A stretch of 32,000 nucleotides of DNA from Candidatus Nanobsidianus stetteri (lineage in GTDB: Archaea; Nanobdellota; Nanobdellia; Nanobdellales; Nanobdellaceae), in assembly GCF_003086415.1 (NCBI RefSeq), contig NZ_QEFP02000014.1:3496-35495 (forward strand), written 5' to 3'. The number at the start of each line of letters is the position of its first letter. Positions within the stretch are counted from its first letter, which is position 1. The notes under the pieces were generated by a model. The model was not told the DNA's origin. It worked only from the letters and a program-made list of their open reading frames with translations, and did not search any database. Shown piece by piece: positions 11,326-24,433 of this stretch. Both the position numbers and the translations under genes were made by a program.

Positions 11326-11922
11326 ATGGATGAATTTAATAAATTAAAAATATATCATATGAAAAAACTTGAGGAAGCTAAGGAAAAATATTTAGCAGAT
11401 CAACCTATATATTATATTCTAGATCTTATTAATTCATTAGATTTCTTTTTTACAACATCTTCATGTGCAGGTAGGATAATTTTATTAAAAATACCAAAAA
11501 GTGGGAAAAAATTTGAGGCCGAATTTCTATTTAAATCCCATTATTATGTAAATTTTTATTATATATGGAATAAATTATTAGAAGTATATAAAAATTATGA
11601 TGAGAAAATATACTTTAAACAAGAACCATTTATTTTGCATGTATCTTCAAAAAATATAGAAAGGGCATATGAACTATTAAATATTGCAAGAAAATCCGGA
11701 TTCAAACATTCTGGAATATTTTTGATAAATGATAAAAGGGTAATGGTTGAAATTGTTGGAAATGAAAAAATTGAAACAATTGTATCAAAAAATAGAAAAT
11801 TATTGGTAGATAAAGAATATTTTTATAATTTAGTAAAAGAGGCAAATGAGAAGTTAAAGAATGTAAGAAAAAGAATAAATATATTTTATAAAAATCTTCT
11901 ATCCTATTATATAACAAAATGA
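11326..11922 (+). CDS. taw3: tRNA wyosine-derivative methyltransferase Taw3 (TYW3 family)
   Basis: FFFTTSSCAGRIILL matches the TYW3 signature SSC(S/A)GRI, and the length of about 200 aa is typical of archaeal Taw3. Confidence 0.7.
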   Translation: MDEFNKLKIYHMKKLEEAKEKYLADQPIYYILDLINSLDFFFTTSSCAGRIILLKIPKSGKKFEAEFLFKSHYYVNFYYIWNKLLEVYKNYDEKIYFKQEPFILHVSSKNIERAYELLNIARKSGFKHSGIFLINDKRVMVEIVGNEKIETIVSKNRKLLVDKEYFYNLVKEANEKLKNVRKRINIFYKNLLSYYITK

Positions 11923-13392
11923 ATTATCACAATAATTATTCATTGTTTCATTATTTATTCCTACAAATTCATATAAATAATAATTGTATGTAAATTGATT
12001 ATTTATATTTAATTCTGAAACATTACATGTAGCATTAAAGTAATAATTTCCATTATTATTATAACATTCAGATATGGTTGTACATAAATTTGATAAATAA
12101 CTTTCCAATGAATTTTGTGAATTTGAACAGTCAGAAGAATTTTTGTACGGACCAAATTGCAATGTTTCATTATTTATAGAGCAACTTACATTATTATAAT
12201 TTATCTGAATATCTACAGGTATTAAAGCTGGATAATATCCATCAGTATAATATGCATAATTTTCTAAAATATTTTCTACAAAACTTGTACTAACTTCTAC
12301 ATTTTTTTCATTAATAATATTTACACCAGTTATATTATACCAATATCCATTGAATATGTTGATTTTATTCAATACTTGATAATTTAACTTTGATAAAATG
12401 GCACTTACATTATTTAAACATTCCTTCATATATTCACTATATATACTATTTACTATACATTGATTATTTACAATCTGCCCAATTGATTCACATGGTATTA
12501 CGATTGTTACATTTGTAATATTTGGATCTTCTACTGGCAAAAGTTGAGATGTATATAGATCTAAAACATAATAATACGGATTATTGAATGAAAAATTTAA
12601 ATATAAATTATCTCCGATTGTTTCTTCAGAATATGCACTTTGATATAAATCTATATAATTTGATTGATTTATTAAATTGTTATATATAAATTGAAATGTT
12701 TGATTATATAAATAATCTATTAATTCATTATAATATAATAAAAAGGGATATATTGAATAACCTATTTGATTATTTAATTCAGGGAAAGTTAAACTTCTTT
12801 CATATTTATTTAATACAAAGAAATAATATTGTGGATTTGATAATACAAAATTATTAGAACCATCATAATAGAAATCCTGATATGAAAAATTTGCATGTTT
12901 AAAATTTAAATTTCCATTTAAATATCCGATTTCATTGTTTAAATCTTGACTTACAATGTTTTTAATACTAAAAAATATATTTTCAATATTTTGATAGTTG
13001 TTTACATTATTTAAAGGAATTACTGGGACACATAATGAATAAATTATGTTATAATTATTTCCATTATCTTCTATATTGGTTAGATTAAATAAAAAAGGAA
13101 CTTCACATTGAGAATAATAATTTGGAATATTATTTCCAAATATATAATTTATATTATATGTAGATCCTTTAAAAATATTTGTAAAAAGATTATTTAATAA
13201 ATTATATCTAATATCAAATGGTATATAAACAAATAATATATATAAAAATCCCTGATATGCAATATAATCTTCACTTAAATATTTTAAAGATTGAGTTGCA
13301 ATTTGAATCTGGGAATTTAAATAAAATATACCAAAGAGAACTAAAATTATTACTCCTAAGAATAATGCTACTGGTGCTAAAGATGTTTTCAT
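11899..13392 (-). CDS. Surface-island protein (497 aa), N-terminal anchor or pilin-like helix, 12 Cys
   Basis: MKTSLAPVALFLGVIILVLFGIFYL is followed by an Asn/Tyr-rich ectodomain with many N-x-S/T sequons and 12 Cys (hand count). It is the last gene of the minus-strand operon, and its 3' end overlaps the taw3 3' end by 24 nt. Confidence 0.75.
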   Translation of the reverse strand: MKTSLAPVALFLGVIILVLFGIFYLNSQIQIATQSLKYLSEDYIAYQGFLYILFVYIPFDIRYNLLNNLFTNIFKGSTYNINYIFGNNIPNYYSQCEVPFLFNLTNIEDNGNNYNIIYSLCVPVIPLNNVNNYQNIENIFFSIKNIVSQDLNNEIGYLNGNLNFKHANFSYQDFYYDGSNNFVLSNPQYYFFVLNKYERSLTFPELNNQIGYSIYPFLLYYNELIDYLYNQTFQFIYNNLINQSNYIDLYQSAYSEETIGDNLYLNFSFNNPYYYVLDLYTSQLLPVEDPNITNVTIVIPCESIGQIVNNQCIVNSIYSEYMKECLNNVSAILSKLNYQVLNKINIFNGYWYNITGVNIINEKNVEVSTSFVENILENYAYYTDGYYPALIPVDIQINYNNVSCSINNETLQFGPYKNSSDCSNSQNSLESYLSNLCTTISECYNNNGNYYFNATCNVSELNINNQFTYNYYLYEFVGINNETMNNYCDNSFCYIIG

Positions 13393-13423
13393 ATAAATTC
13401 AATAAATTTTAAAATTATTAACT

Positions 13424-13903
13424 TTAAGTTGAATAACCACTAGTATAATTTACATAAAAGTTATATAATACTGTTGGTGGACAAACATAGAATGTATATG
13501 ATTCACCATTTAAATAAACATAATAATTTATATATTCTTTATTTGGACATGCACCAATGATTGTATTATTATTAAAATAGAATGATAAAATTGTAGCGGA
13601 ATCATTTAAATAATATAACTCTTCATTTGCCAATTCATTTATTATATAATTATCCAATGCTGTATTATTATAAAATCCTGCGTATATATCTATTACAGGT
13701 ACAGTTACATTATCAAAATAAATTAAAGAATCTAAAAAACCATTTGCAGATTTATATTCAATACCAACAGCATTTAAACCTGCAATATTATTTAGTGTTG
13801 GATTTCCATAGGAAAATATATTAAAGATAAATATAAATAGTAGAACTATAACAATAATTACTGCAGCAATAAATGATAAAAAGAATCCAATTTGTATTTT
13901 CAT
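13424..13903 (-). CDS. Surface-island protein (159 aa), N-terminal anchor or pilin-like helix, 2 Cys
   Basis: Begins MKIQIGFFLSFIAAVIIVIVLLFIFIF. Its start overlaps the upstream stop as ATGA (13900-13903). Confidence 0.75.
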   Translation of the reverse strand: MKIQIGFFLSFIAAVIIVIVLLFIFIFNIFSYGNPTLNNIAGLNAVGIEYKSANGFLDSLIYFDNVTVPVIDIYAGFYNNTALDNYIINELANEELYYLNDSATILSFYFNNNTIIGACPNKEYINYYVYLNGESYTFYVCPPTVLYNFYVNYTSGYST

Positions 13904-23775: not shown

Positions 23776-23960
23776 TGTATTATATTTGGAATTGATTGAT
23801 TTGTAACATTATTAAAGCTATTATTAATAAAATTTATTGATTGATTTGATGCCATATTTCCTCCTAAAAATATTTTATATCCAAACAAAATTGCTAAAAC
23901 TAAAATAACTAATGCAATAACTATGATTATTACCATATCTATTGATATATTACTTTTCAT
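23772..23960 (-). CDS. Mini pilin-like protein, 62 aa, translationally coupled to the 879-aa gene
   Basis: MKSNISIDMVIIIVIALVILVLAILFGY is followed by an Asn/Ser tail (NQSINFINNSFNNVTNQS). ATGA overlap at 23772-23775. Confidence 0.65.
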   Translation of the reverse strand: MKSNISIDMVIIIVIALVILVLAILFGYKIFLGGNMASNQSINFINNSFNNVTNQSIPNIIQ

Positions 23961-23992
23961 ATATATCTAAAAAATTTCATCAATTATAAATT

Positions 23993-24433
23993 TTATTCAA
24001 AAACTTTCTTTTTATAATAATATAAAATTATCCCAAAATTGATAATCAATATTCCATCAGCTGTAGAACAATATAAACATATTGAATGAATTAAAAATAA
24101 CATTAAATATAATGAAAATATTACAAATAATACACCAATTAATCTATAAAATAAATTATAAATTATCTTTAACTTTTTCTTATATAGTAATAATATTAGA
24201 AATATATCAATTATAAAATATGCAATTGCATATGTTTCTAGAGGTATTCCAAACAATTTTGAATATTGACTTTCTATTACTTTTTCACAATTTATTGGGG
24301 TATTATTAATAGAACAAAATAATGGTGATGAATTATTTATTAAAACTACATATTCTAAATAAATATATATAATTAAGCCTATTATTGAGAATATTATTAA
24401 TAATAATAACTTTTTATCAAATTTTAAGTCCAT
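23993..24433 (-). CDS. Vitamin K epoxide reductase (VKOR) family membrane oxidoreductase
   Basis: From the internal ATG at 24433 the protein is 146 aa with four hydrophobic helices. It has a loop Cys pair (LFCSINNTPINC), then SKLFGIPLETYAIAYF, and a CLYC (CxxC) at the start of the last helix pair. This is the canonical VKOR layout. The upstream 42 codons in the track are Phe/Leu-rich junk that would overlap the divergent gene. Confidence 0.6.
   Translation of the reverse strand: MDLKFDKKLLLLIIFSIIGLIIYIYLEYVVLINNSSPLFCSINNTPINCEKVIESQYSKLFGIPLETYAIAYFIIDIFLILLLYKKKLKIIYNLFYRLIGVLFVIFSLYLMLFLIHSICLYCSTADGILIINFGIILYYYKKKVFE

Follow-up and report, generated by a model that had tools for sequence, protein, structure and literature searches.

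The taw3-VKOR gene block

The DNA analysed here, referred to as the window, is a 32,000-nucleotide stretch of contig NZ_QEFP02000014.1 of Candidatus Nanobsidianus stetteri (assembly GCF_003086415.1, positions 3,496 to 35,495 of the forward strand), a thermoacidophilic, host-attached nanoarchaeon of the Nanopusillaceae. Between the genes for TYW3 (taw3, Pfam E-value 2.7e-46) and a VKOR-type protein lie 13 consecutive genes at 11899-23960, 11 on the minus strand and two on the plus strand, which we call the island and number P1 to P12 with an additional P7b (Table 1). An initial annotation of this DNA had described the block as 13 extracytoplasmic genes, 11 of which, all on the minus strand, encode a short leader followed by a hydrophobic helix; the coordinates, open reading frames (ORFs) and extracellular composition proved to be as claimed, and both the 11 members and the N-termini quoted for them matched exactly. 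The block has the same G+C content as its flanks (about 24% across the window).

Nine of the minus-strand genes form a tightly packed operon in the order P8-P7b-P7-P6-P5-P4-P3-P2-P1, and P12 and P11 form an overlapping pair in which the stop codon of P12 overlaps the start of P11. Stop and start codons overlap or abut from P8 through P2 and at P12/P11, which is a stronger argument for operons than the conserved gene order described below. The P10 gene is convergent with P11; its start at ATG 19964 was inferred from the Nst1 orthologue, and the single transmembrane (TM) segment, at about residues 145-163 of the 390-residue ORF beginning with TTG, corresponds to residues 130-148 counted from that ATG. 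VKOR lies on the start side of P12, 32 nt upstream and on the same strand; the two adjoin each other in Nanobsidianus, Nanopusillus and YN1 and are apart in Nanobdella. Co-transcription of the two genes is uncertain because the 32-nt gap contains a TATA-like TTTATAA.

Table 1. Genes of the island, related genes and other features of the window (positions are those of the window; a slash in an N-terminal sequence marks a putative cleavage site; TM, transmembrane segment)
Feature	Position	Strand	Length (aa)	Description
P1	11899-13392	-	497	Helix-anchored ectoprotein, last operon gene; 12 Cys (10 invariant), 15 sequons
P2	13424-13903	-	159	Helix-anchored ectoprotein; 2 conserved Cys
P3	13900-14748	-	282	Helix-anchored glycoprotein; 12 sequons, 4 Cys
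P4	14745-15857	-	370	Acidic N-terminus MDVDELLDAII…, one N-terminal helix; 4 invariant Cys
P5	15859-16800	-	313	Helix-anchored ectoprotein; 6 conserved Cys
P6	16802-16963	-	53	Short single helix, P12 paralogue; overlaps P7 end, abuts P5 start
P7	16953-17138	-	61	Short, pilin-like; N-terminus MDKKT/QVNTF, conserved FKGG…NGT tail
P7b	17131-17277	-	48	Single helix, acidic N-terminus METGELLK…; stop overlaps P7 start
P8	17308-18528	-	406	First gene of nine-gene operon; N-terminus MKS/ISDSVIELI…; 4 invariant Cys in C-terminal domain
P9	18621-19850	+		Surface glycoprotein; cleavable-looking Sec signal (…KIMA/QT), 22 sequons, C-terminal TM anchor
P10	19964-21121	+		Bitopic; charged ~140-aa cytoplasmic N-domain, one TM, low-charge ectodomain
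P11	21136-23775	-	879	N-terminal helix anchor, beta-rich ectoprotein; 12 Cys
P12	23772-23960	-	62	Short, pilin-like; leader of 2-3 residues, helix of 26, tail of 30 with 5 sequons
VKOR	23993-24433	-		Thiol oxidoreductase; PF07884, 75.4 bits (cutoff 27.5), E-value 6.2e-21
Protein A	10847-11320	-	157	N-terminal helix anchor, low charge; just past taw3, outside the block first annotated
S100	30446-30748	+	100	Begins MVKKGQSLSINT…; most canonical class III-like N-terminus of the window, MVKKG/QSLSINT
S62	30757-30945	+	62	Begins MKRSDAINF…; short single helix, paralogue of P12 and P6
Paralogous protein	1840-2505	+	221	See text
Paralogous protein	3802-4503	+	233	See text
tRNA-Leu (TAG)	4511-4594	-		84 nt
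Membrane protein	24484-25041	+		Weak bPH_2 match
Small ORF	31369-31512	-	47	Extremely acidic, tryptophan-rich peptide (…EDWDEDWDEEWDEGEEEWDEEWEEEW)

Composition, glycosylation sites and cysteines

By composition, all 13 products are predicted to be extracellular, with little lysine and little charge: lysine, arginine, aspartate and glutamate together make up 5-17% of the island proteins compared with 26-44% of 20 housekeeping proteins of the same window, and lysine 1-3% compared with 10-18% in the neighbours. In all 11 minus-strand products one strongly hydrophobic stretch (Kyte-Doolittle 19-mer mean 2.7-3.7), a helix of 20-28 residues, lies at the very N-terminus behind a short polar leader of 2-8 residues. 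A single N-terminal helix of about 20-30 residues, with the rest of the protein outside, describes P1-P7, P7b, P11 and P12; this description fails for P9, which has a Sec signal and a C-terminal anchor, and for P10, and is doubtful for P8, in which two weaker hydrophobic helices accompany the strong one and an alpha/beta domain forms the C-terminal part.

N-x-S/T sequons occur at 2.3 per 100 residues in the island compared with 0.44 in the same 20 housekeeping proteins, and the 12 sequons initially counted in P3 were confirmed. An excess over the expectation from composition was found only in P3, P9 and P12 (z = 3.9, 4.6 and 4.4) and marginally in P1 and P2, while P4, P5 and P8, with two or three sequons each, do not exceed expectation and P11 equals it; the description of the island as glycosylation-rich therefore suits the former proteins and not the latter. 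The label disulfide-rich likewise suits a part of the set, as the 44 cysteines are confined to seven proteins (P1-P5, P8 and P11), always in even numbers. Nearly all are kept in orthologues down to about 28-35% identity, the exception being the six C-terminal cysteines of P11, and such even-numbered, conserved cysteines are good evidence for structural disulfides, for which VKOR is the likely disulfide-forming partner.

Distribution, synteny and rate of evolution

The 43 homologues of P11 all belong to Nanopusillaceae, Nanobdella or YN1 (Nanopusillus/Nanobsidianus, hot-spring metagenomes and Nanobdella aerobiophila), and the 112 homologues of P8 come from the same lineage, one of them being 100% identical and named Candidatus Nanobsidianus stetteri; an exact-sequence look-up of P11 matched no record. 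A HMMER profile of P11 searched against 1.84 billion cluster representatives retrieved 119 proteins, all of them fragments or members of the P11 family, and the matches of P11, P8 and the short-protein profile (described below) among 5.8e9 proteins also stayed inside the lineage. The full-library HMMER searches gave no homologue in N. equitans, where any such protein would be below the reach of HMMER.

The initial annotation had proposed a comparison of gene order across relatives, and the cluster is conserved in them. The order P12-P11, P10 (opposite strand), P8-P7b-P7-P6-P5-P4-P3-P2-P1, taw3 (opposite strand) and protein A is shared unchanged by Nst1, N. acidilobi, another Nanopusillus, YN1 and Nanobdella, and by 26 of the 26 metagenome contigs long enough to judge. 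The sole variable gene is P9, which some loci have and others, alike in all else, lack, as do YN1 and Nanobdella; it is an accessory, dispensable gene outside the conserved core. Protein A is always syntenic (57-60% identity in Nanobdella and YN1) and may be a further member of the island, with no direct link to the operon. Orthologues of P12 occur in all lineages, and a more divergent hot-spring lineage retains P8, P7b, P5 (hidden Markov model (HMM) E-value 2e-28) and P11, P7b having orthologues in Nst1, N. acidilobi, YN1 and Nanobdella as well. We read the island as a vertically inherited set specific to the thermoacidophilic Nanobdellales, namely Nanopusillaceae, Nanobdella, YN1 and the one more divergent lineage. 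On the metagenome contigs of that lineage the P8-P5 segment contains an extra gene of 355 aa and P11 lies about 8 kb away beside the gene for fructose-1,6-bisphosphatase; the tails of its short proteins are rich in Lys and Glu and not in Asn, which would fit a less acidic habitat.

N. acidilobi possesses a second copy of P11 and P10 at a different chromosomal site with unrelated neighbours (CP010514, 279-301 kb; P11 of 846 aa and a shorter P10 of 296 aa), and two P11 genes are also found in each of two metagenome-assembled genomes (MAGs), which suggests that P11 and P10 make up a variable adhesin-plus-anchor module; P11 is the candidate distal adhesin of the island. Homologues of P11 with about 70% identity have been deposited under Stygiolobus sp. 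isolates, and one with 41% identity under a 'Thermoprotei archaeon' MAG. Probably these contigs stem from nanoarchaea in host cultures or were assigned to the wrong bin; if so, they hint at Stygiolobus as a host.

Relative to Nst1, the ratio of non-synonymous to synonymous substitution rates (dN/dS) is 0.18-0.48 in the island and 0.03-0.14 in eight housekeeping neighbours, with the highest values in P11 (0.48), P10 (0.48) and P12. The island evolves 3-8 times faster than its neighbours and under purifying selection; every value is below 0.5, so the genes are real, and this rapid but constrained evolution is that of functional genes, as is seen in exposed proteins. In Yellowstone nanoarchaea, the density of non-synonymous single-nucleotide polymorphisms is highest in cell-surface hypothetical proteins. 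The strong conservation in relatives and the fast evolution under purifying selection bear out the initial view of a dedicated surface gene set.

In several large members the N-terminal helix is the best-conserved part, the ratio of the sequence entropy of the first 35 residues to that of the rest being 0.31 in P11, 0.39 in P4, 0.41 in P8 and 0.65 in P3, compared with 1.13 for the Sec signal of P9; between P4 and its distant orthologues the N-terminal 35 residues are 51-57% identical and the remainder 25-33%. Such a pattern is expected if the helices pack against each other, and it is typical of pilins, whose helices form the core of the fibre, and unusual for a mere targeting signal. Conserved stretches at the N-termini include MR[SA][LF][SG]LKDI[IV]EYI in P3, with R2, K7, D8 and E11 invariant, [FL][LF][KR][IV][IV]F[DE][IL]I at the helix start of P5, and K-x-Q-IGFFLS in P2 (46-47% identity to the YN1 and Nanobdella orthologues); P4 has the conserved motif GF(I/L)TYSTSEPG, and P7 is 52-68% identical to its orthologues in YN1 and Nanobdella.

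Family searches and structure models

The initial annotation had recognised no enzymatic motif in these genes and no likeness to archaellins or known archaeal pilin families, and Pfam, NCBIfam and PDB-sequence searches made no assignment either. Scans of all island proteins, their N-termini, S100 and S62 against Pfam and NCBIfam gave no usable match, and profile searches of PDB sequences with P11, P8, P3, P5 and the short-protein family gave only chance or generic TM matches; the profile searches suggested at the outset thus assigned the proteins to no unrelated known family. P7b had a sub-threshold match to DUF7554 (E-value 1e-3) that was confined to its three closest orthologues. The Joint Genome Institute's names for the short proteins (FliL, ComGC, FtsL and others) were dismissed as noise. 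No paralogy was found among the large proteins, since BLAST showed nothing beyond the hydrophobic helices and hhalign gave a probability below 20% for every pair of ectodomains; mutually unrelated ectodomains point to distinct subunits and not to an expanded array of paralogues.

Structure models cover two island proteins, P8 and P11. The AlphaFold2 model of P8 (mean predicted local distance difference test score (pLDDT) 75.6, about 90 in the C-domain) consists of long helices at residues 2-32, 38-101 and 129-181, forming helical hairpins, and an alpha/beta domain, and is not pilin-like; Foldseek found no match to it in the PDB (best E-value 0.77) and none among the BFVD viral models, and P8 had no relative in IMG/VR. 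The P11 model, built from 24 homologues, is unreliable (pLDDT 41.5), with no significant Foldseek matches.

Comparison with type IV pilins and their machinery

The full proteins, the 60-residue N-termini, S100 and S62 were compared by hmmscan with Pilin_N (PF07790), Class_IIIsignal (PF04021) and the NCBIfam archaellin and pilin models, with no credible match at E-values up to 10; the lone Pilin_N match, to P6 (E-value 0.073), scored 14 bits against a cutoff of 25 and stood amid 13 unrelated TM matches. A cleavage motif was defined as the last K or R within the first seven residues followed by G, A, S or T (background 0.25), and this basic-then-small motif was present in 6/13 N-termini of the window, 7/13 of Nanobdella and 6/11 of YN1, a weak enrichment over background (binomial probabilities of about 0.08, 0.02 and 0.03); [KR][GA] was present in 1/13, 4/13 and 2/11, respectively. 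The residue at -1 varies among orthologues (G, S, T or N). One or more orthologues of each of P1, P7, P8, S62 and S100 read KG/Q, KG/V or RG/S, the Nanobdella sequences being HKG/QISTF in P7 and KKG/VSD in P8; P4, P6 and P7b have acidic N-termini without any basic residue. Acidic residues at the helix start are conserved in P3 (D8 and E11) and in P5 (F-[DE]-[IL]-I), and an acidic or Asn residue about 5-6 positions into the helix is conserved in P3, P12, S62 and S100.

S100 and S62, encoded between ArgRS and tRNA-Trp and thus outside the block first annotated, belong with P12 and P6 to one family of 50-100 residue proteins consisting mostly of a helix and a sequon-rich tail (hhalign probabilities: S100-S62, 98.1%; S62-P12, 98.1%; S100-P12, 95.6%; P6 and P12 also cross-match). 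Their profile retrieved 131 relatives, which all belong to this lineage and lack Pfam domains, and matched no solved pilin or archaellin. The pilin topology read from the sequence at the outset is supported by the N-terminal helices, the conservation of these helices and the KG/Q sites of short paralogues, and is weakened or left unsupported by the profiles, the motif and the topologies of P8, P9 and P10; true membership of the type IV pilins is not established, because the profiles failed, the motif is unclear and the modelled fold of P8 is not that of a pilin.

As the initial annotation had stated, the window contains no secretion ATPase, platform protein or prepilin peptidase in domain scans, and no type IV pilus (T4P) machinery gene adjoins the cluster in about 40 related loci, nor was one found beside it among 13 loci from genomes and 80 from metagenomes. 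The initial annotation had suggested looking for such machinery elsewhere in the genome, and for the complete genome of N. acidilobi published tables list three secretion ATPases of the FlaI/VirB11 type (Nps_00925, Nps_01175 and Nps_02250), encoded away from the island, and several TadC/FlaJ genes, given as TadC or type II secretion system F (Nps_01915, Nps_01920 and Nps_02245), and its T4P loci have genes for one-TM proteins of their own nearby. Nst1 has a full archaellum set (Makarova et al. 2016), and two T4P systems besides the archaellum have been inferred (Jarett et al. 2018). No prepilin peptidase is among the genes listed: none of the A24 type is annotated in the N. acidilobi gene table or in Nst1, a divergent one being possible, and two nanoarchaea have been singled out as exceptions without a recognisable prepilin peptidase, together with a nanoarchaeal ATPase clade without identifiable pilins (Makarova et al. 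2016). YN4_047 is listed among type IV pilus-related genes (bioRxiv 10.64898/2026.06.04.730037), and its gene number would fit this neighbourhood. A literature search found no paper naming Nst1_036, MJ1_0040, MJ1_0042, YN1_3820, Nps_00210 or arCOG10265.

A possible helix-assembled envelope complex and its alternatives

We see about an even chance that the island encodes the subunits of one lineage-specific, helix-assembled extracytoplasmic envelope complex, whose role would likely be contact with the host cell. On insertion, the N-terminal helix of each protein would sit in the membrane and the remainder would be outside, the paired cysteines would be oxidised via the adjacent VKOR, and some members (P3, P12, P1 and P2) would be N-glycosylated. 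Lateral packing of the conserved N-terminal helices, as in pilins and pseudopilins, would hold the unrelated ectodomains together, with the 48-62 residue proteins (P6, P7, P7b and P12, joined by S62 and S100 from elsewhere) forming a helical core or thin fibre and P1-P5 and P8 serving as adaptors. P11, fastest-evolving and largest of the set, would be the exposed, host-facing component, and P10, the sole member with a sizeable cytoplasmic domain, would be the transmembrane link paired with it.

In favour of such a complex are the low-charge, extracellular composition, the anchoring by N-terminal helices and their preferential conservation in P11, P4, P8 and P3, the conserved cysteine pairs beside VKOR, the packed reading frames, the mutually unrelated ectodomains, the paralogous short proteins, the rapid but constrained evolution, the gene order kept over about 40 loci, the confinement to this clade and the joint duplication of P11 and P10. 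Several observations weigh against it. The association of its members with one another is proposed from genomic evidence, and conserved order alone is weak evidence of shared function, as synteny between genera extends over the full 32-kb region with its housekeeping genes. In P1, P2 and P5 the N-terminus is hardly or not at all better conserved than the rest, and the identity of the helices is in part inflated by a restricted hydrophobic alphabet. Of the two structure models, that of P11 is unreliable and that of P8 resembles neither a pilin nor any known fold. The orthologues in N. acidilobi, Nps_00205-00265, were undetected in a shotgun proteome covering about one third of the predicted proteins, an absence that says little given that coverage and the lysine-poor, glycosylated nature of the products.

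The same synteny of unrelated housekeeping genes would suit independent surface glycoproteins or S-layer-associated proteins, Sec-inserted by signal anchors, that are clustered by frozen gene order and share no common machine, a reading to which we give appreciable but clearly minor weight. The ectodomains have no mutual similarity, P9 is clearly an ordinary surface glycoprotein that comes and goes, the positive-inside rule gives any signal anchor a basic residue before its helix, and the N. acidilobi genome table contains about a hundred other one-TM hypothetical proteins. However, the overlapping or abutting frames of nine genes argue for one transcript and coupled translation, the helices of four large members are better conserved than their ectodomains, unlike targeting signals, P11 and P10 were duplicated jointly, and four proteins of 48-62 residues comprise little beyond a helix and make little sense alone. 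Small single-helix proteins beside large glycoproteins without homologues are also typical of archaeal virus genomes, and the proteins of virus-associated pyramids, which build cones, are likewise small and N-terminally anchored; a remnant of an integrated virus or mobile element encoding envelope or structural proteins is nevertheless scarcely credible, since the block sits at one and the same chromosomal site in all genera examined, is under purifying selection and has no integrase, repeat or tRNA boundary, and a viral origin was rejected on its G+C content, equal to that of the flanks, and on the absence of any P8 relative in IMG/VR or fold match in BFVD.

It is unlikely, in our view, that the island is a bona fide type IV pilus or pseudopilus set, with class III signals cut by an A24 peptidase, subunits extruded by an orphan ATPase and TadC pair, the short proteins as major pilins, P1-P5 as minor pilins and P11 as tip adhesin. 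Such a set would account for the helices at the extreme N-termini behind leaders of 2-8 residues, for the KG/Q, KG/V or RG/S sites in some orthologues of P1, P7, P8, S62 and S100 and for the acidic or Asn residue about 5-6 positions into the helices of P3, P12, S62 and S100, and the three secretion ATPases and several TadC/FlaJ genes of N. acidilobi, with the two T4P systems inferred besides the archaellum (Jarett et al. 2018), could supply its machinery. Yet the pilin and archaellin models miss every member at E-values up to 10, no pilin or archaellin of solved structure is matched by the short-protein profile, the statistics of the motif are not compelling and its -1 residue is not conserved, P4, P6 and P7b have no basic leader, and P8 has extra hydrophobic helices and a non-pilin model; moreover, neither N. 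acidilobi nor Nst1 has an annotated A24 peptidase, about 40 related loci have no machinery gene beside the cluster, and the T4P loci of N. acidilobi have neighbouring one-TM proteins of their own.

The proposed complex may be set beside known systems. Archaeal type IV pilin sets, such as Epd of Methanococcus maripaludis, with a very short major pilin, Aap and Ups of Sulfolobus and PilA1-6 of Haloferax, comprise several genes, unlinked or clustered, that are often apart from those for the ATPase and platform, and some of their major pilins have only about 60 residues. The island resembles them in having several genes whose products combine a short charged leader, a long hydrophobic helix and a putatively glycosylated extracellular part, in its members of about 60 residues and in its distance from ATPase and platform genes; it differs in its want of a profile match, in a putative cleavage motif that looks non-canonical and varies at -1, in the acidic N-termini of some members, in the non-pilin topologies of P8 and P10 and in the absence of an annotated prepilin peptidase in the lineage. 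Bacterial tip complexes, namely GspH-I-J-K of type II secretion and FimU-PilVWXE with the large adhesin PilY1 of type IV pili, likewise have an operon of four or five dissimilar helix-anchored proteins beside one very large exposed protein, an acidic residue near the helix start, and assembly through the N-terminal helices as proposed for the island. Unlike them, the island is archaeal, has no sequence similarity or demonstrated fold similarity to them and no ATPase or platform operon nearby, and its large protein, P11, itself bears an N-terminal helix. P9, with its Sec signal peptide, 22 sequons and C-terminal TM, is like archaeal S-layer-type glycoproteins, from which the rest of the island differs in its N-terminal helix anchors, its paired cysteines and the few sequons of several members.

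Other features of the window

The genes flanking the island are archaeal housekeeping genes, coding besides TYW3 and VKOR for a DnaG-type Toprim primase, a class V aldolase/phosphatase of fructose-1,6-bisphosphate (FBP), alanyl- and arginyl-tRNA synthetases (AlaRS and ArgRS), fibrillarin, Nop56, eIF-1A and ribosomal proteins, and the window has three tRNA genes. The 3' ends of P1 and taw3, on opposite strands, share 24 nt (11899-11922). Taw3 and protein A are divergent with start codons 5 nt apart (11320-11326), so that the promoter of each must sit within the coding sequence of the other. The membrane protein gene next to VKOR has overlaps with the 3' end of the gene for L21e and with the VKOR ORF where this is extended upstream, and is conserved and syntenic in all lineages (51-96% identity). 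The two paralogous proteins of 221 and 233 aa (42% identity, E-value 7e-43) are encoded on either side of a DUF218 gene and have the common C-terminus NLSCKQSYIAPKDIKILE; neither matches Pfam. The tRNA-Leu was called by ARAGORN and fell below the Rfam tRNA gathering score in a scan of the whole window; its structure may be atypical or include a long variable arm. The small acidic ORF has counterparts in Nst1 and Nanobdella, where genes of 41-48 aa are called at the same position.

A possible relation to the attachment organelle

These ultrasmall archaea dock to their hosts, and probably feed from them, via an attachment organelle. Cryo-electron tomography of this structure in Nanobdella aerobiophila, YN1 and YN4 has shown a cone, a portal, a barrier and a tube of 7-8 nm, the molecular composition of which all three studies state to be unidentified (PMC11104419, PMC11420986, bioRxiv 10.64898/2026.06.04.730037). 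The complete cluster is present in both imaged species that were checked, Nanobdella aerobiophila MJ1 and YN1. The organelle is a repetitive protein assembly embedded in the envelope, on the outer face of the membrane, with a thin filament, and helix-anchored ectoproteins together with short helix-only proteins could build such a structure. The link is circumstantial and comes from phyletic co-occurrence and predicted location; the tube of the organelle, however, reaches the host cytoplasm and joins cytoplasmic filaments, whereas the N-domain of P10 is the only cytoplasmic part of the island. We offer as a speculative and, taken as a whole, improbable extension that the island, S100, S62 and protein A might together encode the structural parts of the Nanobdellales attachment organelle. 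Its repetitive cone and portal, which take the place of the S-layer where the cells touch, would then be built by the large helix-anchored glycoproteins, and its 7-8 nm tube, which enters the host, by polymerisation of the ultra-short proteins that are helix only. In architecture the fibre would resemble a type IV pilus, but no recognisable prepilin peptidase, and perhaps no dedicated type IV motor, would take part in its assembly.

A block of hypothetical surface proteins in a nanoarchaeon is not surprising in itself, but this cluster is real, conserved and uncharacterised. Its predicted location, fast evolution and species distribution fit a role in the organelle, for which it provides a concrete, conserved list of 13-16 candidate genes. 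Should the products be merely unrelated surface proteins, the analysis would still annotate about 2% of a 0.6 Mb genome; should the short proteins form a fibre, this would bear on the nanoarchaeal type IV ATPases that are without identified pilins and on how the archaella of these nanoarchaea work when no prepilin peptidase is annotated.

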